In this document: positions 30 to 24,257 of the stretch, in pieces | Layout: each line of letters begins with the position of its first letter | Position numbering within the stretch: the first letter of the stretch is position 1 | DNA from: Candidatus Iainarchaeum sp. | Lineage (GTDB): Archaea; Iainarchaeota; Iainarchaeia; Iainarchaeales; CSSED10-239 | Assembly: GCA_037441475.1 (NCBI GenBank) | Contig: JBBISB010000001.1 | Coordinates: forward strand, 136,163 to 200,162 | Length of the DNA: 64,000 bases | Reading direction: 5' to 3' | Translations under genes and position numbers: made by a program | The notes under the pieces: generated by a model | Seen by the model: the letters and a program-made list of their open reading frames with translations, nothing else | Database searches by the model: none | Told to the model about the DNA's origin: nothing

Positions 30-3000
30 TTAACTACATTTTAAAGAATCTTGAGGAGAATCTATAAACTTTTGAGAGAATATCTCTGTTTGGTTATAAA
101 AGAACTCAGAGGAAGAACCATCAGAGGAGTTAACCACACATACTTTGTTCTCTCTAATCATATTAAAGACGTCAGCGATAGAGGAAACAGCAAGATTACC
201 CTCTCCTAAAGAAACACTAGAAGAATAACTAGTACCATTAGTTGAAAATCTAACATTTACGCCTTGACTAGTTCTATTTTCAAGAGAGTATGTCTGCTTT
301 TCAGGAGCATAAAAGATTGTTCTTAAATAGATCTTTCCTGTTCTATTAATCTGTGGCCAATCTATAAGGAAGGCAAAGGTTGCTCCTTCTGCGCCTGCAT
401 ATCTATCATTATAACTCATGTTATATATGCTATTACCAGAAAAGTCACAACCTGAACCTACGCCTGTCCATCTTAGAAGAGAGGTTAAAGATATAGCATT
501 ATCTGAACTATCTTTTAACCTATAGTAGACATTCAAAGGAGTGTTATTTCCTTTATCTATACTCATTAAAAGAGGTATTGGAGAGCTTGGTGTTAAAAGA
601 AGATCAATATTATTATACTGATCGTACTTAAGGCTTAATAAATTACCTCTTGTCTCTATATTTGAATTAATCTTTGAAAGATCATTTGATTTTGTAATAT
701 TTATGTTCTTTAAAGCATTTGAACCATAATCAGAGTCTGTTACAGTATAGTCATTATCAATTCTTATGGAGTCTCCTGTGTATGAAACACCATACCCTTG
801 TCTATTATACCCTGAGTTTGTTTTTCCAACAAAACCATTAAATGGCATTCTATAGAAGATACTGTCTGTTTCAGGAGAAGAGATAAACCTTAAAGTAACA
901 AAGGCATTAACATCAACATCATTTCCTTCTTTAAATTTCCAAGAAGCATTATCAAATAAGAAATCTATTCTTACTTTATATTTTCCAGGAACATTTATAT
1001 TAACATTGTTTACTTCATTTGAATATTCTTTAACAAACTTTAAATTATTTTTAAAAAGTAAAGATAAATAATCATTTGAATATACTGTAGGAGATGCCAT
1101 TATAGCATAGTTACCTGTACCTGTTCCATCTTTTTTAGATGCAAGTCCACCGTAAGCTATATCAAAGTCTTTTATAAAACTTTCATTGTATTTATCAGTT
1201 ATTAAGTATGCATCAAACTCTAAGATATTTTTAAGCTTTATAATATCTTCTTCAGGCCAACCTGAACCAACAACATTATCAGGGTACATTTGTTTATTAA
1301 GCCACATATCTAAATAACTTGTTCCATCATACCTTGCGGTTGTTGCAGGGACAAGACATTCTGATGTATTTGTATATTCATAGACAGATAAAGATAACAG
1401 AGAATTAAACACACTATGTTGTATAAAATTATTTGAAGAATTATAAACAATGTTTAAAGAAAGATTATCAGCAATTATTACTGGATTATTTTCAAAGTGA
1501 TATAGGATTGCTGTAATATCATTATCAACAATTATTATTGGAATAGTCTCTTTAATTTCAGAAACCGCTTTGAAAGATCCTAAACTTTCATCAAATATTT
1601 CTATTTTTTTAGGAGTATAGTTTGAAAGCTTTAATGATAAGGTACCGTTATCAACAACACTATTTCTGTTTTCAAGAGTAACTTTAATTATTAAAGAGTT
1701 ATTTTCAGTATTTATTCTTACTGAGTTTATACCTGATCTATTTACAGGAATCTCATTATCTAATCTTGAAGGCTCTGCAGAAACAACATACCCCCCATTT
1801 TTATTTTTGTTATCTATTTGAGAATAACTTATAGGACATTGAACTGTTTTTAAAGAAATTAATTTTTCAGCTTCATTTATTCTGTTTAAAACAACCTGTG
1901 ATAATTGTGTAGCATCACAGTATGTTTCACTACATTTAGTAGTATCTTGTAAATTCCATTTCCAATCAAGAGAGATGTTTGGAACAGCACCCTCTCCTGT
2001 CTTTCCTGATCTTCCGGTATCAGTAACACAATCTTGTAAATTAAGATCATAGTTAGGAGTTTCTTCTGGTTTTGTTAAAAAGAAACCTACTCTGTATTTT
2101 CCAAAGTCATCTGAAAATATATGGTTGTCAGAAGAACTATTTTCATTTAATGTAGGAACAATTGTATTTTCTTTAAAGAAATATTTTCTAGAATCATTAT
2201 GAACCTGAGAATATAAGGCATCATCTAAGGTGTATTTTAAAGCCTTAATACCTGCTTGCTCAGGCCATACTTCTTTATTGTTTTTACAAACAAGATAAGC
2301 ATTATGTTTTAAATTAACTTCATTTCTAGGATACCCTCCTTGACAAGAAATATTAAATTTATAAGTACCTTCTTCTTCTACAAACACATAATACATTGAA
2401 CAACCATCATACTTATCAAAGTTGTTTGTTATTGAAACAAACTCTTGATTTGAAGGGCATTTATTTATTATGTTTGTAAATGTTTTTTTCTTAATTAATT
2501 TTCCTTTAACATTTAATTCTGATTTATAGTAATTGATGTTTTTAAGACCAGTTAAGTCAACAACTGATAAACTTAAATTTTCTGAACTAAGATTATTTAA
2601 AGTAATTTCTTTATATTCTGTAGAAAAATAAGATAAATTAAAGTCAGTAGTTAAAAAATCTTGTTCAACATCATAAATATTTGTAAAAGTTGGAGCTAAT
2701 GCAGCTATAGCTAATAATGCCCCTCCTCCAATCCAACCCCATACAGGAACTACTAATAAAGCACCAACAATACCAATCTCTGCAAGTATAGATGATGCAA
2801 TTATGCCTATTGATACCCCACTTGTTGCCCATAAAAGAGGATCTGTGCCCTTACTTGAAGATAATTCATCAAAAGGAATAAAATTAATATTTCTTTGATA
2901 TGGGTTGTAGTCTTTATTAAAATTTGTAATTGTGAAATCACTTTGACTTTGGTTTAAAAAATGCCATAATGTCTTCTCTAAATTATTATTATAAAGTCTT

Positions 3001-6000
3001 GTAACTTCTGAAGTCTTATTTTCATTAATCTCAATAAAAGGATCTTCCATCCATAAACCATTTTGGTCCTTTGCATTTATTTTTAAAAGAACAAAAGAAA
3101 ATGCAAGCTCTCTTTGGAAGTTATTAACAACAGAGACTCTATTGTTTAAGATGTAAGCACCAGGTGCCTTTGTTGAATCTCTTTTTATAGTCACTGTTTT
3201 TTGAGCATCAAGTAAAGAGAAGTTTAAGATATTTCTTTCTTCATCAGTATTTAAGATTTTTAAATCTCTACAACCATCATCAAAAGCATCACAAAGATCC
3301 ATTCTAAAGGTTGCTTTTCCTACACATTTATTATTAATAGTTAAATTATTTTCTTCAATACCATTTAGAACATAAAGACCACCAGAGTTAATGGTTTTTC
3401 CTGTATTGTCAACATATCCAAAACACTCAGTTAAATCCATTAAAGAAAGATTTGCTTTTAAAATAACTTCTTTTGCTCCATTGTTTACAAAGACAAGACC
3501 TTGTTCAGTCTCTACTTGAGCATTAAGATGTATGTTTGTTTTAACTTCTGCAAACTTAGTTCCATTAGGGTTAAAGGTTAAGTCTATTTTATAAATTTCC
3601 TCAGGTCTCATTTCAGGAATAACAATTCTGTAATAGTTTTCAGATAACTGTATCTGACTTGCAGAAGCAGGCCCTATAAGCTTAAAGAAATAAACACCAA
3701 ATCTATCTCCTTGTGAAGTTATCTTAGCTTGAACATTCTTAACAGCTATTGGTGTTTTTCCTTCCTTTGAAAGACAAGTGTTAGTTATTGTTAAAGTTGT
3801 TGTTTGAGGAGAACCTGCAATTACTGTTGTCCAATCACTTACACCTTGAGTAACTATTACACAATTATCCTCTAAAATTCCACTTCCAACAGAAAGTTTA
3901 ACATTTACAGGAATATCAAACAAGTATTCATTATTGTTTAAAAGATATTTACCTGTAACTACACCTAAGATATCAACTGAAACTGGGTGGCTTCTTGCAG
4001 ACTGGGAAGGAGCAAACTTAATTACAAGTTCCTTTGAGGAGTTTGCTGGTATTATAAAACCTTCTTGAGAGGAGGTTATTTGGTTATTAAGATAATTTAC
4101 AGTTTGTTCTAAGTTTAATAAATCTGATTTATTAAAAGAAACATCATGTGTGTTAAATTGTTTTAAAGAAATATCATATGCTGTTTTATTTTCTAAAACT
4201 AAAGTATATAACTCTCCATTTAAGTTTGTCTTATGGATAGAAGCTTGAAGAGGAGAAGTTGAAGTTAATAGAGAACCTTTGCTCTTAACATCTAAAATGT
4301 TTTTAGTTATTGAAAACTCTAAAGGAGTTGCATAATATTTAGACTTAATAGCCTCTATTATAAATGTCTCTCCTGTTCTTAAAGAAGGAAGAGAAATGTT
4401 TACAACACCCTTTTCGTTTGTTGTTTTACCAGTTGAAACAGTTAAAGTATCGTTATTTACTTTTTGTAAAATATTAATATTTACACCCTCTAAAAAATTA
4501 CCTTTAGAGTCCTTTACAGTAACAGTTAAAGTGAAAGGAGTTCCAGGAACAATGTTTTGAGGCTCGTAAGAAACACTCATCTTTTCAAGTTCAGAGACAA
4601 CAAAGTTAATAGGTAAAGAATAAACTTCTTGTTGAGCAGAAATAACTCTGTTAACCAACTTAGATTGTCCAAGATTTAAAGGAATTACTTCTAAAGAATA
4701 ATCAATGTTTGAAAATGCAGAAAAGTTATCTTTTAAAAGTTCAGGAGCATTAAAAGGAATATTAAAGTTAGTTTCTCCTAAAGCTATATTACCAGATGAT
4801 ACAAACTCTCCAGATAAAGAATACTTCTTTATATTTATCATAGTTGCAGGAGTGTTATCACTCTTTAAATTTCTTGCAGAAACTCTTGCTTGAGAAAAGT
4901 TATTTGAAGAGGAGTTTGAAATTGTATATTCTAAAATATAATCTGAGTTAACCTGCATTGGAACTAATCTATTACTTCCAATATCATATCTTAAGCCCTC
5001 TAAAACATCCACATACTGACCAGAGAAACAAAAGGTGTTATTACATAAACTTGTAGCATCTACAAAGTATTGTAATTGTGAATATTGGGTATTCATAAAG
5101 TTAATAGAATTAATAGATGAAGTATAAAACAAAGATACCTTATCGTTTGTCTTAGCGTTCTTAATCCTTATAGGTATGGTTATTTCATGAACAGAGGCAG
5201 GATACCCTACTACCTGAACATTAACAAGCTTAGATTCTAAAAAGTTTCCTGAAACTGAGAATGGTTCTTTTTCATAGTAAGTAGAAACACCTAAAGAACT
5301 GCTTTGTGGCATTATAAAAACAATATCTTCAGAAACATCAACCTTTGAACCTGCTCTAAATGCAAAATTAAAGCTAGAGGAGGAAGATGGCATTATTACC
5401 TTGTACTTAAGATAGAAAACTTCATTGTTCTTTAAAGACTCAACCTTATTTTCAGAAGTATTAAAAAGACCAAAATATTCAACAGAGACTTCATCGCCCA
5501 CAAGTGCTCTTTCTAAAATAATTTCTTTAGTAACTGTTTTGTTCTTATAGATTCTAAAAAGCTCTGTAAAGTATGGAAGATAACCTGAACTTTCTATTTT
5601 AACAAAAACTCTTTTATCAGCCTTAACTTGGTTTTCTAAAAAACCATTAGCTGAGACTAAGGAAGTTCCTAAAACTTCTAAACTTTCATAGTAAAAGGTT
5701 GCTTGAGCATCTGAGATTGAATCTCCTAGTTTGTTTTTAACATTTAACTTAATTGTTCCTTTACCTATAACTATTGGTAAAGTTATGTTTGTGTCTTCTG
5801 GTGGTGCATTATGGTATACTGAAGAAATTTCTTCTAAAAAGTCATTCTTTACTTTAATAGTAAAATTAAGATCAGGAATATTTTCAAAAGTTGAAATTCC
5901 ATTTTCATCTGAAATTGAAAAACTAAATCTAGGGTCTATATACTGCCCTTGACTATCGTATATCCATGTCTTGATATTCATCATTGGTTTTAAGTCTTCA

Positions 6001-7310
6001 TCTTGTATCTTTACAACAATCTTTGAAACATTACTTATTGTTATTTTTTCTAAATTAAAAATATATGTGCTTTGTGTTTCTAAAACAGGTAAAATATTAC
6101 CTGTAATGTATCCTTCTGCTTCTGCTTTTAAAGAATAGTCTTTAGAAGTGTCTATATTAAAGATAAAGCCTTCATGTAAGTTTCTTTCTTCAATATTTTG
6201 GTTACCATCTAAAAGTAAGGTTACCTTAGGTGAAAAGGTTTCATCTAAGACTTCACCAGTAGCTTTGTCTTTTATAAAAACTGTTATTTGTTTAATATTT
6301 ATTTCTTGATTTGTATCAGGATTAATGATTGTTCCTGTGCTTGTATCAGCCATGATTATCATAGCTTCAGCTTTTTTATTTTTTATAACAATTACTTGTG
6401 TTTGGTTTTGAAGATATCTATTTTGAATATCACTTGCTTTTACAATATATTCTCCTGCTTCAACAGAATTAAAGAAACCAACACCAAAGTTAGTTTGCAC
6501 TGTTTTAATAGCAGTAACAGGATCATTAATTGAGAACAACTTTAAAGTGATTGATTCTTCAATAAATAAATCTCCTGAAAGAACAGAAACTGAGATTGAA
6601 CCAGTATCTCTTACTTCAACAAAAGGATTAATAGAAAATGTACTTTGTGTTGCTGGAATAGATATGCTTCTTTCATTATATCTATCACCAACAATTGTTG
6701 CTGATAATTTTTGACAGTTTGAAGGAACTCTAATAGCTAAAGTTCCATCTGTGGTGGATGCAGAGGAAGGCGTTATAATCTCTTGATTATCACAAACAAT
6801 TGTAATATTAAGTTCTTCTTTAATCTTTAGGTTTGTTAAAGCATCTTCAAAGTAAACTGTTTTTAAAAAATCTTTTTGAATGTTTAAAATAGGTATTATA
6901 AAGTTTAATGAAGGGGATGAAAAAGTTATTTCTTTTTCTGTATATTCATAACCTACAGAATCAATTATTAAAAGATATAGTTTCTTTCTGTCTAAGGAAA
7001 GAGTTAAAGATCCATTCTGATTTGTCCTATAACTATTTAATGTTCCTTCTGATAAGTTTCTTATCTTGAAATCAAAGTTATCTAAAACATTATTTTCAGA
7101 ATCAGCAAGCCTAATGGTTATATCAACCATATCTGCTCTTGAAGCTAATGAAGAACCTAAAATAAAGTATAGAACAACTAATATTATTAATAAAAATAAA
7201 AAAAAAGAAGTTAAAGGAAATTTCTTGTCTAAAGGTCCTGTAATTTTTTTTATTGGTATTCTGTTATCTATCTTTGTTAAAATGTTTTGCCAGGTTTCTT
7301 TAAATGACAT
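30..7310 (-). CDS. Giant membrane-anchored surface protein (2426 aa). Short cytoplasmic N-terminus, single TM signal-anchor, then an S/T/N-rich beta-sandwich-repeat ectodomain. Carries an internal ~45-aa Gly/Ala-rich hydrophobic segment.
   Basis: Uninterrupted 7.3-kb ORF with an ATG start (rc 7308-7310) and an SD-like AAGAGGG 8 nt upstream. TM helix FFLFLLIILVVLYFIL after ~35 aa. Repeated carboxypeptidase-regulatory/Ig-like segments. C-terminal modules are shared with the 964-aa paralog: WTGVGSGCDFSG..GKIYLRTIFYAP, MPFNGFVG..RQGYGVSYTGD and YCDATQLSQVVLN. Confidence 0.85.
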   Translation of the reverse strand: MSFKETWQNILTKIDNRIPIKKITGPLDKKFPLTSFFLFLLIILVVLYFILGSSLASRADMVDITIRLADSENNVLDNFDFKIRNLSEGTLNSYRTNQNGSLTLSLDRKKLYLLIIDSVGYEYTEKEITFSSPSLNFIIPILNIQKDFLKTVYFEDALTNLKIKEELNITIVCDNQEIITPSSASTTDGTLAIRVPSNCQKLSATIVGDRYNERSISIPATQSTFSINPFVEVRDTGSISVSVLSGDLFIEESITLKLFSINDPVTAIKTVQTNFGVGFFNSVEAGEYIVKASDIQNRYLQNQTQVIVIKNKKAEAMIIMADTSTGTIINPDTNQEINIKQITVFIKDKATGEVLDETFSPKVTLLLDGNQNIEERNLHEGFIFNIDTSKDYSLKAEAEGYITGNILPVLETQSTYIFNLEKITISNVSKIVVKIQDEDLKPMMNIKTWIYDSQGQYIDPRFSFSISDENGISTFENIPDLNFTIKVKNDFLEEISSVYHNAPPEDTNITLPIVIGKGTIKLNVKNKLGDSISDAQATFYYESLEVLGTSLVSANGFLENQVKADKRVFVKIESSGYLPYFTELFRIYKNKTVTKEIILERALVGDEVSVEYFGLFNTSENKVESLKNNEVFYLKYKVIMPSSSSSFNFAFRAGSKVDVSEDIVFIMPQSSSLGVSTYYEKEPFSVSGNFLESKLVNVQVVGYPASVHEITIPIRIKNAKTNDKVSLFYTSSINSINFMNTQYSQLQYFVDATSLCNNTFCFSGQYVDVLEGLRYDIGSNRLVPMQVNSDYILEYTISNSSSNNFSQARVSARNLKSDNTPATMINIKKYSLSGEFVSSGNIALGETNFNIPFNAPELLKDNFSAFSNIDYSLEVIPLNLGQSKLVNRVISAQQEVYSLPINFVVSELEKMSVSYEPQNIVPGTPFTLTVTVKDSKGNFLEGVNINILQKVNNDTLTVSTGKTTNEKGVVNISLPSLRTGETFIIEAIKSKYYATPLEFSITKNILDVKSKGSLLTSTSPLQASIHKTNLNGELYTLVLENKTAYDISLKQFNTHDVSFNKSDLLNLEQTVNYLNNQITSSQEGFIIPANSSKELVIKFAPSQSARSHPVSVDILGVVTGKYLLNNNEYLFDIPVNVKLSVGSGILEDNCVIVTQGVSDWTTVIAGSPQTTTLTITNTCLSKEGKTPIAVKNVQAKITSQGDRFGVYFFKLIGPASASQIQLSENYYRIVIPEMRPEEIYKIDLTFNPNGTKFAEVKTNIHLNAQVETEQGLVFVNNGAKEVILKANLSLMDLTECFGYVDNTGKTINSGGLYVLNGIEENNLTINNKCVGKATFRMDLCDAFDDGCRDLKILNTDEERNILNFSLLDAQKTVTIKRDSTKAPGAYILNNRVSVVNNFQRELAFSFVLLKINAKDQNGLWMEDPFIEINENKTSEVTRLYNNNLEKTLWHFLNQSQSDFTITNFNKDYNPYQRNINFIPFDELSSSKGTDPLLWATSGVSIGIIASSILAEIGIVGALLVVPVWGWIGGGALLAIAALAPTFTNIYDVEQDFLTTDFNLSYFSTEYKEITLNNLSSENLSLSVVDLTGLKNINYYKSELNVKGKLIKKKTFTNIINKCPSNQEFVSITNNFDKYDGCSMYYVFVEEEGTYKFNISCQGGYPRNEVNLKHNAYLVCKNNKEVWPEQAGIKALKYTLDDALYSQVHNDSRKYFFKENTIVPTLNENSSSDNHIFSDDFGKYRVGFFLTKPEETPNYDLNLQDCVTDTGRSGKTGEGAVPNISLDWKWNLQDTTKCSETYCDATQLSQVVLNRINEAEKLISLKTVQCPISYSQIDNKNKNGGYVVSAEPSRLDNEIPVNRSGINSVRINTENNSLIIKVTLENRNSVVDNGTLSLKLSNYTPKKIEIFDESLGSFKAVSEIKETIPIIIVDNDITAILYHFENNPVIIADNLSLNIVYNSSNNFIQHSVFNSLLSLSVYEYTNTSECLVPATTARYDGTSYLDMWLNKQMYPDNVVGSGWPEEDIIKLKNILEFDAYLITDKYNESFIKDFDIAYGGLASKKDGTGTGNYAIMASPTVYSNDYLSLLFKNNLKFVKEYSNEVNNVNINVPGKYKVRIDFLFDNASWKFKEGNDVDVNAFVTLRFISSPETDSIFYRMPFNGFVGKTNSGYNRQGYGVSYTGDSIRIDNDYTVTDSDYGSNALKNINITKSNDLSKINSNIETRGNLLSLKYDQYNNIDLLLTPSSPIPLLMSIDKGNNTPLNVYYRLKDSSDNAISLTSLLRWTGVGSGCDFSGNSIYNMSYNDRYAGAEGATFAFLIDWPQINRTGKIYLRTIFYAPEKQTYSLENRTSQGVNVRFSTNGTSYSSSVSLGEGNLAVSSIADVFNMIRENKVCVVNSSDGSSSEFFYNQTEIFSQKFIDSPQDSLKCS

Positions 7311-7327: not shown

Positions 7328-10222
7328 TTAATTAACAATACATGCTCCTCTTGCATTTATCCAGCTATTTTGAGAATCTGAAGATAAATCATTACTGAAT
7401 AATGGTTCTGATACTGCAATTGGGTTGTAATATACTTTTAAGTTGTTTGCACTATAATCAATACATGCTTTCTTATCTTTTACAAGAGCAAAGATTTCTG
7501 ATACAAACTTAATATCATTTCCTAAAATATTCTTAAGTTCAACTGTCTTTGATCCATTTTTTTCTCTTGTATAGAATAATGCATCATCGTCATAAGCATC
7601 TTGGTATAATACACTTACACCATTACCGCTCTTGAAATTACTTGGTGTGTAAAAGACTGTTCTTAAATAAACATCTCCTCTTCTTGTGATGTTTCTATTT
7701 TCCCATTCAACACCGTATGAAACTCCTTGACTTGATGTTGTTGGTGCAAGTCTTGAAGATAATGCTGCAATGTCTGGTCTGTAAAGGTATACTTCTTGAA
7801 CAGAAATACCTGTAAAGTCTAAACAATTTCCAACACCTGTCCATGGAACTAAGCTTCCAGGAGTACTTGCAGGAGATCCACCTAATGCTTGTGGTGCACC
7901 TATATCAAGCTTATAGAAACTATAAGCATTGTTAGCTTGGTTTGAAACTTTTAAAACAACTGGTGTTGCTCTAGAAGGAACAAAAACTAACCTTGGATTT
8001 GTTTTTGTACTTGATAAAGAAATGTCTAAAAGCATTCCTCTTGTTGAACTGTTGTTTATAAAAGAAAAGTCAGTTGCTTCTTTTCCATATTCCTTAACAC
8101 TTATAGTATTAACTGTATTTGATTGAGTAAAAGGCTCAGTTCTTAAATATTCATTAGTTTGAAGTTGTGAGATTGTTACAATATCTCCTGTAAAGTCAAC
8201 ACCGTAACCTTGTCTTGCGTTCTCTGAATCAATACCAACAATACCATTAAATGGCATGTAGTAAAGAGGAGAATCTCTTTCAGGTGCAAGTTCTCTAGTT
8301 AAGATAACTTCAACTTTTCCAGAAACTTCTCCTGTTGTTTTATTAAATAAATTCCATTCATCATCAAATGTTACTTTTAATAAAACATTGTATCTTCCAG
8401 GTCCTTGAAGCATTAATCTACCAGGCTCTGAATCAAAGGAAGATTTAAATATTAAGTTATCTGTTGTAAAGTATTTATAGTAGCTATCCTTGTAGTAATC
8501 AGGGGCAGCTGTTATTGTGAATCTATAGTATCTATCAAAATCAGCTTTAAAGTCATTAGAATAACCATCTTTCATTAAATAAGATCTAAACTCTACTAAA
8601 GAAGTATCTATCTTGTTATTCTTTGAATAAAGGTTTATGTTTTGAGATGTTTTTTCTAAGTTACATAAATCTGAGTTTGGAGTAAATTCATTTATTAAAA
8701 TATTATCTGCTGTTGTAACCTCTAATGATTTATAAGGCTCTATTAAAGTTAAGATAGCTTGTACCTTAAACTTTGTTTCATCATCTAAGATTAAACCAAC
8801 ATTAAACTTTTCAGATCCTGAGAATTTTTTGTTTGTAAAGTCAATAACATTTATTGTTATAAGTTTAGATGTTTGTAAAACATTGTCTTTGAAAACAATT
8901 ATGTTAAGGTCACCGTATTTTGGAGTTGCTGCATTCTTATCACTTGAATTAAAGGATCCTTTTAAAGTATAATCTACTGTTACAAAGGAAGCTTCATAAT
9001 TTGAGTTTAATTGAGTTATACCTAAATTATTATTTTCTGAAATTAAGCTTTGAGTTATACCTGGTGTAGGACATGTAAATGAACCTTTGTTGTTTTGTAC
9101 AAATGTTTCTATATCTTTTAATTTATTTAAAACTTCAATTGAGAATTGTGTTGCATCACAGTAAATTGATTGTTTGTCTTTTTGACCTGTTAAGTCAGCA
9201 TCACACCAGTTCTTTCTTGAAACACTCATTCCTGAGATTGTTTCTGCGTTGTCTATACTGTATGTCCAGTCAAGAGCTATTCTTGGAAGAGCTTCTGTTC
9301 CTGTACTTCCTAAAAGAGTAGTACCATCTTCAGCTATACAGTTAACTTGATCAAGTTCAATTCCTGTAATATCGTCTCTTACATAAGAGTTAAAGATTAA
9401 TTTAAATGGTTCTAAAACAACTTCTTGTTTTTTATTTTCATCAATTTTGTTTAGAAGTTTTTTATTTGAACCGTCTAAGTATTTTGAAATTTTAATTTGA
9501 CTTGCACCTGTAAAGAAAGGTATCAACATTGAATAGCCACCCCAGATATCTTCAAAATCAAGTTCATAATCTACTTTTCCTGTATATGTTGACTTAGGAT
9601 ATCTTATTACAAAGTTTCTATATTCATATGCATTTTCAATAGTTTTGTTTGTATCTTCAAATAATATTTCTCTTTTTTGTATGTCTTTAGGTTGATTGTT
9701 TGAATCTAAAAGAGTTACTAGTTTTGTTTTTTCTGCAAGTCTGAAAAGAGGTGAGTTTTTACCATCATCTATTTCAGATAGATTTTTGGTGTTTATAAAT
9801 CTTGCATCTAAGATGTTTTCATCTGTTAAAAGCATGTTATTTTTAACTATTTTTTGATCTATTCTATTATCTAAAAGGTAATTATCATATGGCTCAAAAT
9901 AATCTATTTTATCAGTAGATATATTTACTTTGTCTCTGTCTAAGGCAAAATCAATCTCTACTTTTGAAAGTTGAGAAAAGGTATTAATAGCTGAAAAAGC
10001 ACCTGCTAGGACACCGTGCACAATTGGGTTTAGACCAAAGACTTTGTTTAAAAGTGTTTCAGCACCAGAAAACAATTGTTCAATAAGTACATTTCCTGCT
10101 TGGCTTTTGGCTTCACTAGCTAATTTATTAGCAGAGACAGGCATGCTTACAAATGAAAGCATAAGTGCCATTATTAAAAAAATTCCTAAAAATTTTATTT
10201 TATTATTTTTTATTTTTTCCAT
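7328..10222 (-). CDS. Large secreted protein (964 aa) with a Sec-type signal peptide. Paralogous to the C-terminal part of the 2426-aa giant.
   Basis: N-terminus MEKIKNNKIKFLGIFLIMALMLSFVSMPVSA|NK is a classic n/h/c signal peptide. Shares the YCDATQFS..VLN, MPFNGIVG..ARQGYGVDFTGD and WTGVGNCLDFTG..GDVYLRTVFYTP modules with CDS 30..7310. The 17-nt gap to the next gene suggests translational coupling. Confidence 0.85.
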   Translation of the reverse strand: MEKIKNNKIKFLGIFLIMALMLSFVSMPVSANKLASEAKSQAGNVLIEQLFSGAETLLNKVFGLNPIVHGVLAGAFSAINTFSQLSKVEIDFALDRDKVNISTDKIDYFEPYDNYLLDNRIDQKIVKNNMLLTDENILDARFINTKNLSEIDDGKNSPLFRLAEKTKLVTLLDSNNQPKDIQKREILFEDTNKTIENAYEYRNFVIRYPKSTYTGKVDYELDFEDIWGGYSMLIPFFTGASQIKISKYLDGSNKKLLNKIDENKKQEVVLEPFKLIFNSYVRDDITGIELDQVNCIAEDGTTLLGSTGTEALPRIALDWTYSIDNAETISGMSVSRKNWCDADLTGQKDKQSIYCDATQFSIEVLNKLKDIETFVQNNKGSFTCPTPGITQSLISENNNLGITQLNSNYEASFVTVDYTLKGSFNSSDKNAATPKYGDLNIIVFKDNVLQTSKLITINVIDFTNKKFSGSEKFNVGLILDDETKFKVQAILTLIEPYKSLEVTTADNILINEFTPNSDLCNLEKTSQNINLYSKNNKIDTSLVEFRSYLMKDGYSNDFKADFDRYYRFTITAAPDYYKDSYYKYFTTDNLIFKSSFDSEPGRLMLQGPGRYNVLLKVTFDDEWNLFNKTTGEVSGKVEVILTRELAPERDSPLYYMPFNGIVGIDSENARQGYGVDFTGDIVTISQLQTNEYLRTEPFTQSNTVNTISVKEYGKEATDFSFINNSSTRGMLLDISLSSTKTNPRLVFVPSRATPVVLKVSNQANNAYSFYKLDIGAPQALGGSPASTPGSLVPWTGVGNCLDFTGISVQEVYLYRPDIAALSSRLAPTTSSQGVSYGVEWENRNITRRGDVYLRTVFYTPSNFKSGNGVSVLYQDAYDDDALFYTREKNGSKTVELKNILGNDIKFVSEIFALVKDKKACIDYSANNLKVYYNPIAVSEPLFSNDLSSDSQNSWINARGACIVN

Positions 10223-10255
10223 ATTTTTTTACACCTTTTTTTAAAAATATAAAAA

Positions 10256-13200
10256 TTATTTAATTATTTGTATAGGGATATAACCACTTACATTAAACTC
10301 AGATAAGTTTTGAACAAGATATTGTTGTGTACTACCACTTATTCTTAATATTTTTTTACTTCCTGCTTTTTCACCTAAATAAATTGCAAAATAGCCCATA
10401 GCTCCAGAAGAACTTGGGGAAGTGTAACCTATAAAGTCACCAGGAGATAAATTATTTTCAGCGTAAGGACTACAGGTTTCATAATTACAAATAAAATTAA
10501 CAACTGTAATTTTATTTGTTTTTTGAATACCTTCTAATGCAGCTAACTTATTATACATTTCAATACCAGAACCATAGTTAGTTAAGTTAGGAGAAGTTCC
10601 ATTCAAGGAATCTAAATTAATATAATTATTTGTAACACTAGAATCTTCAGTTTCAGTAGTGGTTGCAGTTCCAGTTCCAGGAGTGGTTGCAGATCCAAGA
10701 GTAGTAATTGTAGAAGTGCCTTTTACAGCAGCTTCAAGAGCAGTTGTTGCCTCTTTTATTTTTTTCTTATCTCCACCAGCAATTGCTGCTTTTAAAGCAG
10801 TTGCAGCAGTAATAACATCAGAATCATTATTTCCCTCTACACTTTTTAATAATTTATTTGCCTTATCTTCTGCTAAAGCAAATATCTTACCTTGTAAAAA
10901 AGCAGAGATAGTTGTAGTGTATATTCCTTCTCTTAAGAAAGCAACAAAGGCCATCTTCCATTTAGCATTTTCTTTTACAGTAAACTGTCCTGTTATCTCT
11001 TGACTATAACAAAGGTTAATAATGTTTGTAACATCGTAAGCTATAGCACTCATAGAAAGACCAGTACTCTCAGATGTCTCTGATCTATAAAGATCAAACT
11101 CATATCTTTCAAGATCTAAACAATAGTCAGTAGGTCTAACATATACCTTAACTCTTTTTATTAAATCTTCATCTTGTCTTGATTCTTTCATAGCACCGTA
11201 AACGTTTAAAACATAAGCACCAGGTGTTGCGCCCATAGATGATACTGTAACAGCTTGACTTGTACCTGTAGAAGATACCTCAATATCTCCTCTAGGATCA
11301 ACTATAAGACCAATACAATCATCACATGAAAGTCTGTATACCATGCTTGTAGAGCATGCTTTATTTTCAATAGTGAAAGAGTCCCCCATTTGTCCAACAT
11401 TTAAAGTGTTCTTTGAGAATACAACACAGTCTTTTAAATTTGTAACATCAATCTCAAAAGCGATTTCAGAAACTATTTCTTGAGATCCATTACCAGTATT
11501 GTTAATAGATCTAAATTGTACCTTACCTTTAACAGTTCCTTTCATTCTTCCTATAGGTTCATACTTTAAAACAACTGGAAGAGATCTATCTCTATCAAAA
11601 GTATCAAGTAAATTTCTATAGTTACCATGTGTAAGTTCAACAGATCTATTATCTATACTTACTATAAACTTACCTTGTGGATTAGATTCAAATAATACTC
11701 TTGCTTCAAGACCATTTGATAAAGGCATGTTTGTTCCTTTTATAGAACATGTGTTTGCAATTATAAAGTTTGTTTGTACAGGTTTATTTATAGAAACATC
11801 TTTCCATAAACCATTTGAAATTGTTAAACAATTTGAATTATCAATCATACCATCAAAGCCAATATTTACTTTAATAGGAAGTTCTGTTTGCCATTTATTA
11901 TCTCCACTTGAAAGAACAATGTAAAGTGTTGAAGATAAATTTTGAAGTTCTCTAATAGTTTCAGCTCTTGGGTTTAAACTTATTGTTAAAGGTATAACTT
12001 TTGAAGCATCTTTGTTGTCAGGTAAACTTGATACTGTATCGTATCCTTTTATAACAATTCCAACACTTTCAAGAAGAGAATTATTAATTCTTGCTAAGTC
12101 AACAACCTCTAAACCATTTCCTTTAACAACTAACTCTTCAATAGTTAAGTCTATTGGAAAAATATTATTAATTGTAAAGTTTTCTGTTTTTTGTTTTTCA
12201 TTAAAGATATTTAATGAATATGCTAAGTTTCTTGGTATTATATTAAATAATCTATCAGTAGCTCTAAGCTCTATTAAAGTAGTTTCATACTCTGGAGCAG
12301 AAACATAAACATATATAACATCATTTGGACCTTGAGCAGGGATGTTTGAAACATTTAACTCTCCTGTTGAGTTAGGTATTGCAAGAGGTCCTTTTATTGT
12401 ATCTTTAAATCTATCTTTAATAGTTACAGTAGCATCTTTAACAGGAACTGAAGATTTTGAATCTTTTTGTTTTACTAAAAGATTAAAGTTTTTACCTGAA
12501 GGTATAACTTGTGGATCAGCTGTAACAATTAATGTTTTATCAGAAGCAACATCTATGAATAATTGATTAATAAATCTTACTCTTTGATCTGATATAAACT
12601 TAATAGATAAGTTTCTTGTACCTTTTAATTTAGGAGTGAAAATAATTTCACCAGTTACCTTTTGTTTAGATAACAATTGTGTTATTGAAATATCAAAAGT
12701 GTATGAAGATGGATTATTCTGTGTGAATATCTCTCCATTTGGTTTAATGATCTTAATAGTTTTAATATCAAGACCTTCATCAATATTCTCTAAAATGAAT
12801 CTTGAGGATAAATATCTTGTTTCATTTGAGTTATTGATTAATGTAAAAGTATACTTATACTCTTTGTTTGGTTTTGCACCAAAACTATCAGTAACATCGT
12901 ATCTTAAATCTTCTAAAACATCAACCATTGTTGAAGAGAAACAAAACTCTGTAGAACAGAAAAGTTCACTTCCCACACCGTATGTTATATGGTCATAAAC
13001 ATCATAATATTCTATTTTATCATTACTTCCTAAATATTGGCTAAATGTTTCATACTCTTCATCTTGGTTTAAACCAAAACCAAGATTATATATTTTTAGT
13101 TCTTCACCAAAGACAGCTGTATCTTTAACTGAAATTGTTGCTTCTATTTCATAGTTGTTATAGAAACCAATAGAACCTGTATAATCAATAGGCCATTCCT

Positions 13201-15370
13201 TTAATGTTGCTTTAGCCCATTTAAAATTTCCTTCAGTTAAGCTATCTTGATCTTTAAAGCCTTCACTTTCATGTGGAGGGTTTAAGTTATATTGAGTGTA
13301 TTTTTGTATACTATCTAAATATGGAACATCTAGATGTTTAATAAATAAAGAATCATTTTCAATCATTGAAGTTGAACCTGTTCTTAATAAGAAACCAATA
13401 TCTTCAAATCTATCATCTCCAGTTCTGTTTTGAGGAACTAAAAGATTATATCTTACTTGATAATCCATTCCAGCCTTTAAATTATCTTTAACTTCTAAAC
13501 CATCTTTAAAGATACCAATAAACTCCATTCTAGGTTTTGATGTAGAACTGTTCTTTGGATATAAAGTAACTGTTAATTTTTCTTGAGTATCTGCTCTTAA
13601 AGGAACAAATCTTGATTGTGTTTTTCCATAAAAGTCATTTAAGTAATCTGTAGCAACAACATAATAATCATTACCAGCATCAACAAAGAATTCAATTATT
13701 CCTTGTGAGTTTGTAAGATTACTTCTAAGTGGTATTGCAGGAGTAAAGCTGTAGTAACTATATCTATCGTATAAATCTATTCTTGCATCTGGAACTGGCA
13801 TGCCATCTTTATCAACAACAGAGACAAGTAAAGAACCTTCTGAAATACCCATTGGTATTATAATTTCTCCAGAAAGATCTGGAAATTTAACATTAAATTC
13901 AAATGATGAAGATTCTCCAGTGACACTTCCCTTAATAGCTTTAGCTATATATCTTCCTGATGAAATATTTATTGTAGCATTTCCATCATAGTTTGTTACA
14001 AATGGTTTATAGTCTGTTAAAAAGCCAGTCTCTGCATCATATAAAACTACTTTTGCAAACTTAAAGCCTTTTCCATCCCAAGTTGTAACTTTAACTTTTA
14101 ATGAAGCTAAAGTACCAGGAGTTATTAATGTTAATGGTATTACTATAGGTGTTGAAGGCATTTCTGCTTTTGCAGTTACGACTTGTCTTTTTATTAAATA
14201 ACCTTCAGCATCAACAACTACATTATAGTCTTTTATTTCAGGGACAGTGAAAATTACATATCCATTATCATCTGAAATTTTTGTTTCAATAGTATTATTT
14301 GAAATTGTTTTTAAACTTACTTCAGCATCTTTAACAGCACCAACTATTGGAGCTGTTACTCTTACATAGACATAACCTTTAACATCTGTTGTAAGTGTTT
14401 CTGTTTTAGTTGTATTTTCTGATAAATAATATGGTTTTGATAAAGTTCCGTATAAAGGAACTGTTCTTTGATCTGAATAGTTTGCTGTATATTCTCCTTT
14501 AGAAACTTCTTCGATTGTACATGTTCCGGTAGATATAGTTATACATGAACCAGCAGAACCGTAGTTGTTTGTTAAAGTTACCTTAATATTTGATAAGCCT
14601 TCACCTAAGGAGTTTTTAACATTAAAAACAACCTTAAATTTATCTCCTTCAAAATTAAAGTTTGTAGGTATAAGTGCAATTCTTCCTGTTGAGTTTGTAA
14701 TAGGAATATCATACTGTGAAACATACCCTGTAAAAGATATTGAAGAGATTGCTAATCTACATTCAGGGAAAGCATCAACAGTTATTTGACCATTTGAAAA
14801 ATTCATTGGTGCAGGAGCCATGCTTCCATTTAAACATTTAAAAGCAACTGAACCTGATCTATCAATAATTTGATTTGTTTCAGAGTTTACTGCATTAAAG
14901 GAATAAGTAACTGTAAGAGGTGTTACTTTAGTTGGTTCTAAAGCTAAAGGAATTATCTCAAAATTTTCTTTAGATAAAATCTCTGTTGTGAAATTATTAT
15001 AATTCTCTTCAGAAATATCTATTTTATAAAAGGAATTTTTAGGAACTTTTGATTTTTCAGTAAGACCATTTTCTGAAGTTTTAAGATATAGGTTACCTTC
15101 TGTAGTTGAAACTATTAAAGATATATTTTCAAGCAAAGCACCTGTATCTGCATCCATAACCTTAAACTGGATATCAACTCCATCTCTTACTCCACCTGAA
15201 GGTAAAAGTAAAAAGATAAGTCCAGAAATTATAATTAAGATTAAAAGAAGAAATAAAACAAATGAAGGCATAACCTTATCTATCTTATCTGTGATCTTGT
15301 AAAGACCAGTTCTTTCAACAAAACTATAGTATCTATCTTCTAGATTGTAATAAAACTTTTTAAGTCCCAT
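10256..15370 (-). CDS. Giant membrane-anchored surface protein (1704 aa). Conserved N-terminal cytoplasmic motif plus TM anchor, then a beta-rich ectodomain.
   Basis: N-terminus MGLKKFYYNLEDRYYSFVERTGLYKITDKIDKVMPSFVLFLLLILIIISGLIFLLL, with the motif shared with CDS 15411..22376 and 24515..32605. Contains the FCSTEFCFSS..VDVLEDLRYD module also present in CDS 30..7310. SD-like GAGGT upstream of the ATG. Confidence 0.85.
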   Translation of the reverse strand: MGLKKFYYNLEDRYYSFVERTGLYKITDKIDKVMPSFVLFLLLILIIISGLIFLLLPSGGVRDGVDIQFKVMDADTGALLENISLIVSTTEGNLYLKTSENGLTEKSKVPKNSFYKIDISEENYNNFTTEILSKENFEIIPLALEPTKVTPLTVTYSFNAVNSETNQIIDRSGSVAFKCLNGSMAPAPMNFSNGQITVDAFPECRLAISSISFTGYVSQYDIPITNSTGRIALIPTNFNFEGDKFKVVFNVKNSLGEGLSNIKVTLTNNYGSAGSCITISTGTCTIEEVSKGEYTANYSDQRTVPLYGTLSKPYYLSENTTKTETLTTDVKGYVYVRVTAPIVGAVKDAEVSLKTISNNTIETKISDDNGYVIFTVPEIKDYNVVVDAEGYLIKRQVVTAKAEMPSTPIVIPLTLITPGTLASLKVKVTTWDGKGFKFAKVVLYDAETGFLTDYKPFVTNYDGNATINISSGRYIAKAIKGSVTGESSSFEFNVKFPDLSGEIIIPMGISEGSLLVSVVDKDGMPVPDARIDLYDRYSYYSFTPAIPLRSNLTNSQGIIEFFVDAGNDYYVVATDYLNDFYGKTQSRFVPLRADTQEKLTVTLYPKNSSTSKPRMEFIGIFKDGLEVKDNLKAGMDYQVRYNLLVPQNRTGDDRFEDIGFLLRTGSTSMIENDSLFIKHLDVPYLDSIQKYTQYNLNPPHESEGFKDQDSLTEGNFKWAKATLKEWPIDYTGSIGFYNNYEIEATISVKDTAVFGEELKIYNLGFGLNQDEEYETFSQYLGSNDKIEYYDVYDHITYGVGSELFCSTEFCFSSTMVDVLEDLRYDVTDSFGAKPNKEYKYTFTLINNSNETRYLSSRFILENIDEGLDIKTIKIIKPNGEIFTQNNPSSYTFDISITQLLSKQKVTGEIIFTPKLKGTRNLSIKFISDQRVRFINQLFIDVASDKTLIVTADPQVIPSGKNFNLLVKQKDSKSSVPVKDATVTIKDRFKDTIKGPLAIPNSTGELNVSNIPAQGPNDVIYVYVSAPEYETTLIELRATDRLFNIIPRNLAYSLNIFNEKQKTENFTINNIFPIDLTIEELVVKGNGLEVVDLARINNSLLESVGIVIKGYDTVSSLPDNKDASKVIPLTISLNPRAETIRELQNLSSTLYIVLSSGDNKWQTELPIKVNIGFDGMIDNSNCLTISNGLWKDVSINKPVQTNFIIANTCSIKGTNMPLSNGLEARVLFESNPQGKFIVSIDNRSVELTHGNYRNLLDTFDRDRSLPVVLKYEPIGRMKGTVKGKVQFRSINNTGNGSQEIVSEIAFEIDVTNLKDCVVFSKNTLNVGQMGDSFTIENKACSTSMVYRLSCDDCIGLIVDPRGDIEVSSTGTSQAVTVSSMGATPGAYVLNVYGAMKESRQDEDLIKRVKVYVRPTDYCLDLERYEFDLYRSETSESTGLSMSAIAYDVTNIINLCYSQEITGQFTVKENAKWKMAFVAFLREGIYTTTISAFLQGKIFALAEDKANKLLKSVEGNNDSDVITAATALKAAIAGGDKKKIKEATTALEAAVKGTSTITTLGSATTPGTGTATTTETEDSSVTNNYINLDSLNGTSPNLTNYGSGIEMYNKLAALEGIQKTNKITVVNFICNYETCSPYAENNLSPGDFIGYTSPSSSGAMGYFAIYLGEKAGSKKILRISGSTQQYLVQNLSEFNVSGYIPIQIIK

Positions 15371-22580: not shown

Positions 22581-24257
22581 TTATTGAGCAACACACCCTG
22601 CTGTCCCTGGTAACCCTGCTTCGTAACTTTTACATCTCCATCCTGATGTCAGAGGATTATTTAAAATTACTTGGTTTTGAAAATATCCTGGGGTTCCAAA
22701 GCTAAATGTTTGAGAAGGATTAAAAAAAGAATAACTTGCATAATCATCTTCTAATTGCACATAGATATTTTTATAATCTTCTGCAAGGATATATCTTTCA
22801 TCCTGGTCTTCAAATTTAAATAAAATATTTATTTTTTCTATTTTGCTACACTTTAAATTAAAATTTTTATTATCTTGAGAAATATTAGTAGGGTCTCTTA
22901 AAATAAAAATATTATTATCATTATTTAAAGAAAGTCCAATATTTGAAGCTTTATTATATTGTAATGGATTAAAAATTACAGGTGTTATTGATGAGTCCCC
23001 TTGAATACCTCCAGCAGAAGGTTCTGATAAAACCTCTTTTGTGACTTTTGAAACATCAATTACACTTACATTACAGATATTTAAACCATTTTGTGAAACA
23101 ACAGAGTTTCTACACACCCCAATACCATCATTTACTGATTTAAGGTTATTTCCTGCATAGATTTGTACTGGTGTTCTTGCAGAAACATTATTTTTAATAG
23201 TTGTCTTAACAAGATCTTCAAAAACAGGTTTTAAATTTTCTGATGTTTGAAGAGAATAACTATTATTTCCTGAAAGATTAATATTTGTACCAACTACAGT
23301 ATACCCTCCGCCGTTGTTTGCCTTAACTCCTGAAACTGATGTTGGTTTTGTACAAACATCCGAAAAATAATTTTTATTAGTAGTAATAAAAAGATCTTCT
23401 CTTAACCCACAACTATCAATATCACAAACCCCAAGCTTTGCACTGTTTAAAGTGTAATGGATGTATGGGTTAAAGAAACCTTGAGAGGTTGAAGAACGAT
23501 TTAATATTTCACTTTGATCTTTTTTTTCGAGCTCAGCATCAAGAGCAAAGTTTCTAACAGTCCTCATAGCTTGAAACCCTCTCCAAGGAATATATATCTT
23601 ATACTCTCTTCTTGCAAAAACTGGTCTTTGAATAACCTCATCATTTTGATTTCTTTTAACAACAATCATTGGAAGTTTTTCATAGTCCTCTGCAGATAAG
23701 TTTCTAGTGTCTATTGTAAAATATAAAGTTCCTAAACAATTTACACTATTCTGCTCACAATCAACAACTTTTAACTTATTATCTCCTGCTGCAACAAAAG
23801 AAGCTTTAATAATTCTAGATAATTCTATTTTATCATAATCAGGAACTTGAATACCATACCCTATAGGTGGGTTTGTATATAATAAACTACTTATAACGTT
23901 TTGTGCAAAGAAATTTTCAAATTGATTATCAAAAAAAATATCATCTGCATAATATTTTACAAAACTATCCCAATCAAGCATCACTTGTTCTCTTTGAATT
24001 TTAATTTGATTATCAGGGTTACTTCTAAACTTTATCCATTGTTCTCTAAAAGAAACAACAAAGTTATTAAAAGCATCAGCTCTTGAAATATCTGCAATAG
24101 TAATTAGATCAGAAGTTCTTGATTGATCATCAATTAAGGATAAATAGTTTTCTTCGGTCTGTACCATGTTATATACAAAAACAATTGTTATGGAAAGTAG
24201 CATTAAAGAGATTAATGCTGTAAAAAGATTAAATCCTTTTTTGTTTTTTATAAACAT
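22581..24257 (-). CDS. Prepilin-like protein (558 aa) with a class III (type IV pilin-type) signal peptide, embedded in the giant-protein cluster.
   Basis: N-terminus MFIKNKKG|FNLFTALISLMLLSITIVFVYNMV: short basic leader, Gly, then a ~22-aa hydrophobic helix, matching the archaeal PibD/FlaK and bacterial prepilin peptidase substrate pattern. The rest is a large Cys-containing globular region. ATG start. Flanked by 204-nt and 257-nt intergenic spacers. Confidence 0.6.
   Translation of the reverse strand: MFIKNKKGFNLFTALISLMLLSITIVFVYNMVQTEENYLSLIDDQSRTSDLITIADISRADAFNNFVVSFREQWIKFRSNPDNQIKIQREQVMLDWDSFVKYYADDIFFDNQFENFFAQNVISSLLYTNPPIGYGIQVPDYDKIELSRIIKASFVAAGDNKLKVVDCEQNSVNCLGTLYFTIDTRNLSAEDYEKLPMIVVKRNQNDEVIQRPVFARREYKIYIPWRGFQAMRTVRNFALDAELEKKDQSEILNRSSTSQGFFNPYIHYTLNSAKLGVCDIDSCGLREDLFITTNKNYFSDVCTKPTSVSGVKANNGGGYTVVGTNINLSGNNSYSLQTSENLKPVFEDLVKTTIKNNVSARTPVQIYAGNNLKSVNDGIGVCRNSVVSQNGLNICNVSVIDVSKVTKEVLSEPSAGGIQGDSSITPVIFNPLQYNKASNIGLSLNNDNNIFILRDPTNISQDNKNFNLKCSKIEKINILFKFEDQDERYILAEDYKNIYVQLEDDYASYSFFNPSQTFSFGTPGYFQNQVILNNPLTSGWRCKSYEAGLPGTAGCVAQ

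Follow-up and report, generated by a model that had tools for sequence, protein, structure and literature searches.

What might a stretch of 49 nearly uncharged residues be doing in the middle of the ectodomain of a giant archaeal surface protein? The question is raised by the first gene of a 64,000-nucleotide stretch of contig JBBISB010000001.1 (assembly GCA_037441475.1, positions 136,163 to 200,162; this whole stretch of DNA is here called the window). The source organism is a tiny, probably symbiotic archaeon, a Diapherotrites (DPANN) relative of Ca. Forterrea. The gene lies on the minus strand and encodes a protein of 2426 amino acids (aa). Our preferred, although tentative, explanation is that the segment is a membrane-inserting helical hairpin with both flanks outside the cell, most likely a topology-neutral second anchor in the cell's own membrane.

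A long hydrophobic segment with two arms in a 2426-aa protein

A Kyte-Doolittle scan located the segment at aa 1494 to 1542, and comparable segments were found in relatives, so that a real hydrophobic element does lie inside the ectodomain, as an initial annotation of this DNA had proposed. The peptide singled out there, SGVSIGIIASSILAEIGIVGALLVVPVWGWIGGGALLAIAALAPTF, corresponds to aa 1497 to 1542 (window 2685-2822, minus strand). The uncharged stretch begins at W1494 and thus comprises 49 residues (window 2685-2831); the coordinates first given, 2690-2835, were right to within ∼5 nucleotides at the low end. A plus-strand reading of 2690-2835 was rejected: both frame-1 translations were meaningless, and the feature lies in another minus-strand frame.

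Outside the N-terminal anchor, this segment was the only internal one in which a 19-aa window exceeded a Kyte-Doolittle value of 1.6 (maximum, 2.42). Gly, Ala, Ile, Leu, and Val together make up 76% of its residues, compared to 34% of the remaining ectodomain, and Gly plus Ala alone account for 35%, compared to a family background of 14%. In shuffled ectodomain sequences, a 19-aa peak of 2.42 was common (434 of 5000 shuffles), whereas the mean of 1.83 over 45 aa was reached in 10 of 5000 (shuffle mean, 1.13; standard deviation, 0.20). What is unusual about the segment within its own protein is therefore its length, not the height of its peak. A stronger case for the segment is made by its relatives, described below. 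Local GC content reaches 0.41 at 2700-2839 because of the Gly and Ala codons; that of the window is 28.6%.

The segment reads W-ATSGVSIGIIASSILAEIGIVGALLVV, then PVWGW, then IGGGALLAIAALAPTF, and is followed by TNIYDVEQDF. It contains six small-xxx-small motifs and a single Glu, with an acidic flank on each side and aromatic residues at the ends of the stretch. Two hydrophobic stretches of bilayer length are thus joined by a short turn, which is the layout of a membrane hairpin. With a first arm of 28 aa, the PVWGW turn, and a second arm of 16 aa (20 with WGW), the segment is long enough for the helical hairpin that had been suggested. The exact register of the turn is uncertain because E1511 of arm 1 aligns with Lys in two orthologs. 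The features of the protein and of its neighboring paralog are as follows (window coordinates).

30 to 7310, minus strand: open reading frame of the 2426-aa giant surface protein (relatives carry the NCBI names "hypothetical protein" or "carboxypeptidase-like regulatory domain-containing protein")
7215 to 7310, minus strand: conserved basic N-terminal tail, aa 1 to 32, MSFKETWQNILTKIDNRIPIKKITGPLDKKFP (aa 1 to 33 hold 7 Lys or Arg and 3 Asp or Glu)
7155 to 7214, minus strand: N-terminal signal-anchor transmembrane (TM) helix, aa 33 to 52 (Kyte-Doolittle, 2.99; Wimley-White 19-aa sum, -19.9 kcal/mol)
2832 to 7154, minus strand: N-module, aa 53 to 1493, with immunoglobulin (Ig)-like and prealbumin-like domains (Big_1, CarboxypepD_reg)
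2748 to 2831, minus strand: putative hairpin arm 1, aa 1494 to 1521, WATSGVSIGIIASSILAEIGIVGALLVV (small-xxx-small motifs at 1498, 1502, 1506, and 1513)
2733 to 2747, minus strand: turn PVWGW, aa 1522 to 1526, the best-conserved part of the hydrophobic segment
2685 to 2732, minus strand: putative hairpin arm 2, aa 1527 to 1542, IGGGALLAIAALAPTF (low-confidence helix, aa 1525 to 1542, in the AlphaFold2 [AF2] model)
2655 to 2684, minus strand: acidic and aromatic motif TNIYDVEQDF after the segment, aa 1543 to 1552 (family consensus F/W-x-N-D/E-Y/F-D), followed by beta-rich domains
2142 to 2960, minus strand: hypervariable recombining cassette 1, aa ∼1451 to 1723, which holds the putative hairpin and the following domain of ∼180 aa
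135 to 2048, minus strand: conserved C-terminal region of the C-module, aa 1755 to 2392, found also in the 964-aa paralog and in hundreds of giants outside the window
7328 to 10222, minus strand: 964-aa stand-alone paralog of the C-module, with a typical N-terminal signal peptide (aa 7 to 32)
9977 to 10093, minus strand: amphipathic helix-NP-helix of the 964-aa paralog, aa 44 to 82, NVLIEQLFSGAETLLNKVFGLNPIVHGVLAGAFSAINTF, just past the signal peptide and the positional counterpart of the putative hairpin

Other kinds of element were considered. The segment does not resemble a PGF-CTERM/archaeosortase-type sorting signal, since it is internal and lacks both a PGF motif and a basic tail. Nor is cleavage as an internal signal peptide indicated: the A-L-A motif is followed by Pro at the +1 position (ALA/PTF), a residue that blocks type I signal peptidase there, and A-P-x-F is kept in several orthologs. 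Pfam searches with the hairpin region (87 aa) and with the C-module returned no matches at E values up to 10, and a PDB sequence search with an ortholog profile also returned none.

The segment lies at the joint of two modules

The 2426-aa gene belongs to a tandem array of giant genes on the minus strand whose products measure 2696, 558, 2321, 1704, 964, and 2426 aa. BLASTP comparison of the proteins of the window matched aa 349 to 1439 to the 1704-aa giant and aa 150 to 1183 to the 2321-aa giant, and matched aa 1755 to 2392 to aa 289 to 921 of the 964-aa protein. Because its parts match these three neighbors, the 2426-aa protein is composite. In a profile-profile global alignment, the 964-aa paralog was related across the entire C-module, and its helix-NP-helix fell opposite the putative hairpin, an equivalence that the alignment supports with modest confidence. 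The segment is the N-terminal element of the C-module and lies exactly at the joint between the N-module and the C-module. The adjacent 1704-aa and 964-aa genes, homologs of the N-module and the C-module, respectively, together span window positions 7328-15370 (the 2426-aa gene occupies 30-7310) and look like a split version of the fused layout. Homology to the C-module was not detected in the 2696-, 2321-, and 1704-aa giants of the window or in the 2129-aa giant downstream at locus L001. In an AF2 model of the 964-aa paralog, mean confidence (predicted local distance difference test [pLDDT]) was 52, and the N-terminal 289 aa were below 50.

A conserved basic tail motif lies ahead of the anchors (window 7215-7310 and the N termini of the other giants; L001 20213-26602). 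It reads MSFKExWQxxLxKIDNRIPIKKITxPLDKK, and the paralogs carry a related version, ...IDK..P(S/L)F.... This basic motif may be a recognition signal for targeting or assembly.

The segment recurs in kind across a large protein family

Eight full-length homologs of the 2426-aa protein were identified (36 to 100% identity), and gene order was kept around homologs (2321-1704-964-2426-125-816-2129-120-120 aa). A scan of one genome per species detected 12 loci, all in DPANN or unclassified archaeal metagenome-assembled genomes, including the complete genome of Ca. Forterrea multitransposorum, Ca. Diapherotrites, and Ca. Iainarchaeum. P0002, and the ortholog at locus L003 (CP045477, Ca. Forterrea multitransposorum), is 61% identical to the 2426-aa protein across its full length and has the hairpin. 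An exhaustive HMMER search with a C-module profile gave 566 cluster representatives at E values up to 0.001 and 270 at E values up to 1e-30; most of the 150 matches listed were giants of 2300 to 2600 aa matched at their C termini. A word-indexed homolog search with the same alignment returned no matches, compared to the 566 by HMMER; the word prefilter seems to have been defeated by the low-complexity, AT-biased sequence. No relatives were found in viral contigs.

Of the eight aligned full-length family proteins, counting that of the window, seven had a comparable segment at the same relative position, and such a segment was also present in 9 of 10 full-length genomic orthologs. More distant relatives were represented by 96 proteins of 2200 to 2800 aa, in which we compared a zone 650 to 1050 aa from the C terminus with control zones. 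Kyte-Doolittle values above 1.6 were found in the zone in 57 of the 96 representatives but in the controls in only 2 of 96; at a threshold of 2.0, the counts were 42 and 0. Among the 57 positive proteins, 48 had a hydrophobic span of at least 36 aa, the length of two helices, and the other 9 (for example, P0022) had one clear stretch of 19 to 35 aa. In most of 104 giants, the longest uncharged internal run lay at a relative position of ∼0.61 to 0.65 and was 30 to 45% Gly plus Ala (background, 14%). The same feature (Kyte-Doolittle, 2.88) was present in a distant homolog on a groundwater contig of 54% GC content, which rules out a base-composition artifact behind the Gly and Ala richness.

The sequence of the segment is poorly conserved except for the turn, (I/L)(P/G)(P/V)(W/Y/F)G(W), and the motif after arm 2, and its length ranges from ∼40 to ∼105 aa. 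From these comparisons, the predicted hairpin is conserved in kind and recurs at the module joint across a large family.

Variants were also seen. One subfamily of distant members (P0034, P0036, P0048, P0053, P0067, P0085, and P0118) carries CPxC in the hairpin turn (CPPC, CPVC, or CPAC), and D/E-D-P-C follows arm 2 in P0067 and P0118 as well as in P0058, P0063, and P0076; these cysteines may form a redox or metal site or a disulfide. In L013 (∼aa 1590 to 1690) and P0005 (aa 1508 to 1585), the region between the arms has grown to 50 to 100 aa of uncharged, low-complexity Ala/Thr/Gly sequence, such as AATTTTTIVATAAATATTTVATTAG.

Both arms lose membrane character together, and the segment lies in a swapped cassette

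At least four orthologs are without the hairpin. P0004, which is 59% identical to the 2426-aa protein and has the same synteny, lacks arm 1 and the turn, and a DNA alignment shows an in-frame deletion or replacement; a hidden frameshift was rejected on the basis of this alignment and of the other two frames, which are full of stop codons. P0011, P0013, and the Ca. Iainarchaeum ortholog L012 retain just an amphipathic, charged remnant of arm 2. The hairpin is thus dispensable, since P0004 lost the segment and the other three keep the remnant alone. In all four, where arm 1 is gone, arm 2 is charged or amphipathic, and this joint loss of membrane character would be expected if the parity of membrane crossings mattered. 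The initial annotation had regarded orthologs lacking the segment as evidence against its proposal. That concern is borne out in part: the segment is widespread in kind but absent or degenerate in these four proteins.

Comparison of near-identical proteins placed the segment in a region of exceptional variability. P0002 and P0003 are 94 to 100% identical save for two blocks, in which identity is 16% to 46%: aa ∼1451 to 1723 (window 2142-2960), containing the hairpin and the next domain, and aa ∼1875 to 2015 (window ∼1266-1688). P0015 and the L011 ortholog are 97 to 100% identical everywhere but in the post-hairpin domain (48%) and so differ in cassette 1 alone. Because identity drops there in otherwise near-identical proteins, the hairpin lies in a recombining, hypervariable cassette. 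The P0002 cassette is closest to that of P0008 (46% identity, compared to 35% in the N-module). The hairpin sequences of P0015 and the L011 ortholog are unrelated, yet each is a hydrophobic two-arm segment; what a given cassette type preserves is thus the physical nature of the hairpin and not the sequence. The swapping suggests recombination-driven diversification of a specificity region.

Both halves of the protein are predicted to lie outside the cell

If the segment were a true TM hairpin, the initial annotation had argued, the distal half of the protein would have an unexpected topology. This part of the proposal is not supported. The C-module is an end-to-end homolog of the 964-aa paralog, which begins with a signal peptide, and 11 of its cysteines are invariant among eight orthologs. 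It holds as many N-x-S/T sequons as the other half of the protein (24 in each), at a density as high as in the N-module, and the flanks on both sides of the segment are acidic. Because of the signal-peptide paralog, the invariant cysteines, the sequons, and the acidic flanks, we place the C-module outside the cell, and therefore expect the segment to cross the membrane either zero times or twice, with both halves outside. Having both flanking parts on the same, extracellular side is what a hairpin requires. The turn or loop that would then face the cytoplasm has no Lys or Arg in most orthologs, a single Lys in two, and a Glu near the middle in the 2426-aa protein.

Most segments are marginally hydrophobic, and a minority are TM grade

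Sums of the Hessa and Wimley-White types were calculated from literature scale values, without position or length corrections, and serve as a rough comparison relative to the N-terminal anchor. In the 2426-aa protein, the Wimley-White 19-aa sum was -6.6 kcal/mol for the segment, compared to -19.9 for the anchor and -4.2 for the next-best stretch of the ectodomain; the crude Hessa-scale sum was +0.6 to +2 per arm. Across the family, the median Wimley-White value of the anchor was -14.9, whereas the zone had a median of -5.3 and the remaining protein one of -3.3. Zone values of -8 or lower were reached in 21 of 96 proteins, compared to 1 of 96 controls, and values of -12 or lower (to -17) in 4. 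Some relatives are clearly TM grade, with Kyte-Doolittle values of up to 3.0. A minority of members thus have a clearly TM-grade segment, whereas in most the hydrophobicity is marginal. The Sec machinery should integrate the TM-grade segments of these relatives.

We modeled aa 1425 to 2426 with AF2 from 19 aligned sequences (mean pLDDT, 70; predicted template modeling score [pTM], 0.38). The model was mostly beta, and its longest C-module helix was 20 aa. Confidence was below 50 in model residues 60 to 115 (aa 1484 to 1539) and 70 to 90 in the beta-rich domains after the hairpin. Arm 1 was modeled as coil and arm 2 (aa 1525 to 1542) as helix, and beta strands began at ∼aa 1545, in agreement with the ordinary beta-rich sequence noted earlier after the segment. 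The segment was not placed confidently in any folded domain, so that the model neither buries it in a core, a possibility raised at the outset, nor shows a confident hairpin. Foldseek searches of the PDB and BFVD returned only generic Ig-like, adhesin, and tail-fiber beta-sandwich matches, at query-normalized TM-scores of 0.10 or less. No viral or cellular fusogen (class I, II, or III, or fusexins) was found by Foldseek, a weak test given the query model's pTM of 0.38.

A second anchor in the cell's own membrane is tentatively favored

The second membrane-interaction site envisaged in the initial annotation remains the most reasonable reading of the two-stretch layout, the conservation across the family, and the lack of confident domain placement in the AF2 model. 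The favored arrangement would be an autonomous, marginally hydrophobic, Gly/Ala-rich hairpin with an arm of ∼20 to 28 aa, a tight P-x-W-G-W turn, and an arm of ∼16 to 20 aa. Given the basic tail and the strongly hydrophobic helix, the signal anchor would leave the N-terminal tail (aa 1 to 32) in the cytoplasm and the N-module outside. At the translocon, arm 1 may then stop transfer and arm 2 restart it, giving an out-in-out hairpin in the cell's own membrane. The C-module would also come to lie outside, tethered at its base; for this location, the signal-peptide paralog, the conserved cysteines, and the acidic flanks all argue. The end state would comprise three membrane helices and two large extracellular parts, with the hairpin as an accessory second anchor that, being accessory, can be lost, but only as a pair of arms.

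In favor of a hairpin in the cell's own membrane are the two-arm design with its tight turn, the bias toward two-helix length (48 of 57), the joint loss of the arms, the TM-grade relatives, and the predicted extracellular C-module. Several points weigh against it. In the 2426-aa protein and its near orthologs, hydrophobicity is marginal and far below that of the N-terminal anchor, and AF2 yields no confident hairpin. The turn or loop appears to lack Lys and Arg, though it is presumed to be cytoplasmic, and the 30- to 50-aa low-complexity Ala/Thr/Gly tracts between the arms of P0005 and L013 look more like an extracellular linker than a cytoplasmic loop. The predicted hairpin also sits in the most variable, recombining part of the protein, which would be unexpected for a membrane-proximal anchor.

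Alternative explanations

The same composition could serve an element that acts in trans. Such a fusion-loop-like segment would pass its own translocon, stay shielded at the joint of stalk and head, and enter the membrane of a host or partner as a kinked hairpin; insertion would follow binding by the adjacent variable domain, and its effect would be either to attach the symbiont to the bilayer of the host or to disturb that bilayer. We regard this as unlikely, though a serious alternative. Internal segments that are Gly/Ala-rich, marginally hydrophobic, and kinked are found in class I viral fusion glycoproteins, including avian sarcoma and leukosis virus (ASLV) Env, Ebola GP2, and paramyxovirus F0. 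The segment shares this composition, with hydrophobicity far below that of its own TM anchor, and has a central Pro/Gly kink. The ∼1440 aa that precede it, with their Ig-like domain matches, could form a stalk, and its cassette is swapped between near-identical proteins (P0002 and P0003; P0015 and the L011 ortholog), as expected of a host-specificity determinant. Loops without Lys or Arg that can be rich in Thr and Ala also fit, as does the absence of lipid synthesis in Ca. Forterrea, whose large proteins have been proposed to act in cell-cell interaction (PMC5905446). Other features of fusion proteins are missing, however: no conserved protease or priming site was found, the 40 to 70 aa upstream being unconserved and without a shared basic motif; no long heptad-repeat helix follows in the AF2 model; and Foldseek detected no similarity to viral or cellular fusogens, subject to the weakness of that test. 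Action in trans does not require the two-helix length bias or the joint loss of the arms, several orthologs manage without the segment, and Sec should trap the TM-grade segments of relatives in cis. The likeness to an internal fusion peptide proposed in the initial annotation thus covers the composition, rich in Gly and Ala and moderately hydrophobic, and the location where the distal module begins, but not a priming site, heptad repeats, or a fusogen fold. In its fullest form, which we consider doubtful, the proposal would make the hairpin a host-membrane insertion device at the joint of a ∼1,400-aa stalk and a head, within a specificity cassette, by which a lipid-auxotrophic symbiont plugs into the host bilayer. 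It would be a cellular, nonviral counterpart of the internal fusion loop, with the 1704-aa and 964-aa genes as its split version.

Improbable, in our view, is that the segment never meets a membrane and is instead a hydrophobic low-complexity linker or self-association element, for example, a glycine zipper for oligomerization or for docking to partner proteins of the cluster. It would then match, in hydrophobic form, the amphipathic helix-turn-helix that the 964-aa paralog carries. Stand-alone paralogs do have an amphipathic rather than TM-like helix-NP-helix at the equivalent place, and the extreme variability in length and sequence with Ala/Gly/Thr expansions, the marginal hydrophobicity, the several small-xxx-small motifs, and the low AF2 confidence (as in disordered linkers) could all be accommodated. 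But 45 to 60 nearly chargeless residues, 76% of them Gly, Ala, Ile, Leu, or Val, would be prone to aggregate in water, arm 2 is as hydrophobic as a true TM helix in many relatives, and terminal aromatic residues with a Pro/Gly turn are typical of membrane hairpins. A single span, or any odd number of spans, would put the distal 880-aa half in the cytoplasm. The nine distant relatives with one clear stretch are what such an arrangement would predict, but the end-to-end homology of the C-module to a signal-peptide paralog, the 11 invariant cysteines, the 24 sequons, the acidic flanks on both sides, and the spans of at least 36 aa in 48 of 57 relatives make it very improbable. Equally hard to credit is burial in the core of a folded domain. 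The arm 2 helix of the AF2 model does adjoin the first beta domain; against this stand a pLDDT below 50, deletion in P0004 and degeneration in three further orthologs with the flanking domains intact, a length that varies from ∼40 to ∼105 aa, and a sequence nearly unconserved save for the turn.

Relation to known systems

Helical-hairpin membrane anchors and the glycine-zipper TM hairpins of polytopic membrane proteins, for example, that of the ATPase c/K subunit, resemble the predicted arrangement: two antiparallel Gly/Ala-rich helices with small-xxx-small motifs and a tight turn, both ends on the same side, and topology unaffected. They differ in showing no homology to the segment (Pfam, PDB); the latter is much less hydrophobic than typical anchors, has a turn without positive charge, and belongs not to a compact membrane protein but to an adhesin-like ectodomain of 2,400 aa. 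With class I viral fusion peptides, the segment shares an internal position, Gly/Ala richness, marginal hydrophobicity, the central Pro/Gly kink, and a place in a large surface glycoprotein where the distal module begins. Unlike those proteins, the 2426-aa protein has no conserved cleavage site, heptad-repeat core, or fusogen fold and is anchored N-terminally, not C-terminally; the segment is also about twice as long as a class I fusion peptide and is dispensable in some orthologs. CdiA, of contact-dependent inhibition, is a giant filamentous surface protein whose variable, specificity-determining domain and membrane-interacting region lie midway along the chain and not at an end. The likeness is an analogy of layout only, without homology: CdiA belongs to bacterial two-partner secretion, and the 2426-aa protein shows no toxin domain. 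Phage tape-measure proteins, very long and extended, contain Gly/Ala-rich predicted TM hairpins thought to enter the target membrane; they too are not homologous to the 2426-aa protein, for which no relatives were found in viral contigs and whose context is a cellular cluster of surface proteins.

The closest precedent is the cluster of large membrane-anchored proteins of Ca. Forterrea multitransposorum (Probst & Banfield 2018, PMC5905446). The protein family and the gene cluster are the same as those of the window, and the hairpin is present. Both have been noted a single time in print, without detail. In the passages of that paper that a term search matched, no internal hydrophobic segment, module structure, or variable cassettes are described (PMC5905446), and our literature search found no account of the internal hairpin, of the fused and split modules, or of the swapped cassettes. 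A helical hairpin anchor or an internal fusion loop is of a known kind; what is new is that it recurs midway along giant, adhesin-like proteins of DPANN archaea, within a recombining cassette.

Other features of the locus

Archaeal housekeeping genes elsewhere on the window encode an XPD helicase, a HerA-like ATPase with an intein, NurA, and PPDK. The ATPase, of the HerA/DUF87 type (840 aa; window 51521-54043, plus strand), is split by an intein with a LAGLIDADG homing-endonuclease domain (Pfam Intein_splicing, 1.3e-32; LAGLIDADG_3, 5.3e-13). Within the giant-gene array, the N terminus of the 558-aa protein (window 22581-24257, minus strand), KGFNLFTALISLMLL, resembles a type IV pilin/class III signal peptide, and the protein had no Pfam match. 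The 2696-aa giant (window 24515-32605, minus strand) has a weaker internal hydrophobic stretch between cysteines at aa 2172 to 2199, CAGCYGLSAVLMPVSIAGIGIDCLGFSC. Downstream of the 2426-aa gene, conserved synteny comprises genes for two multi-TM proteins of ∼120 aa, secreted proteins of 125 to 130 and 816 to 835 aa, and the 2129-aa giant (L001 26650-27281 and L002 26740-27179). These proteins may be membrane partners of the giants.

Implications for DPANN cell surfaces

Without lipid or nucleotide synthesis of their own, DPANN archaea such as Ca. Forterrea depend on hosts for both. The analysis of this locus defines a module structure for a giant surface family of 566 cluster representatives, whose C-module and hairpin have no Pfam family, PDB sequence match, or specific fold match. 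Were the hairpin to serve as no more than a second anchor in the membrane of its own cell, the result would be a useful but ordinary topology annotation. Together with its cassette, the hairpin is a concrete candidate for a membrane-contact and specificity element of these cells; should it prove to insert into the membrane of a host, DPANN symbionts would have their first candidate for a membrane-insertion element.

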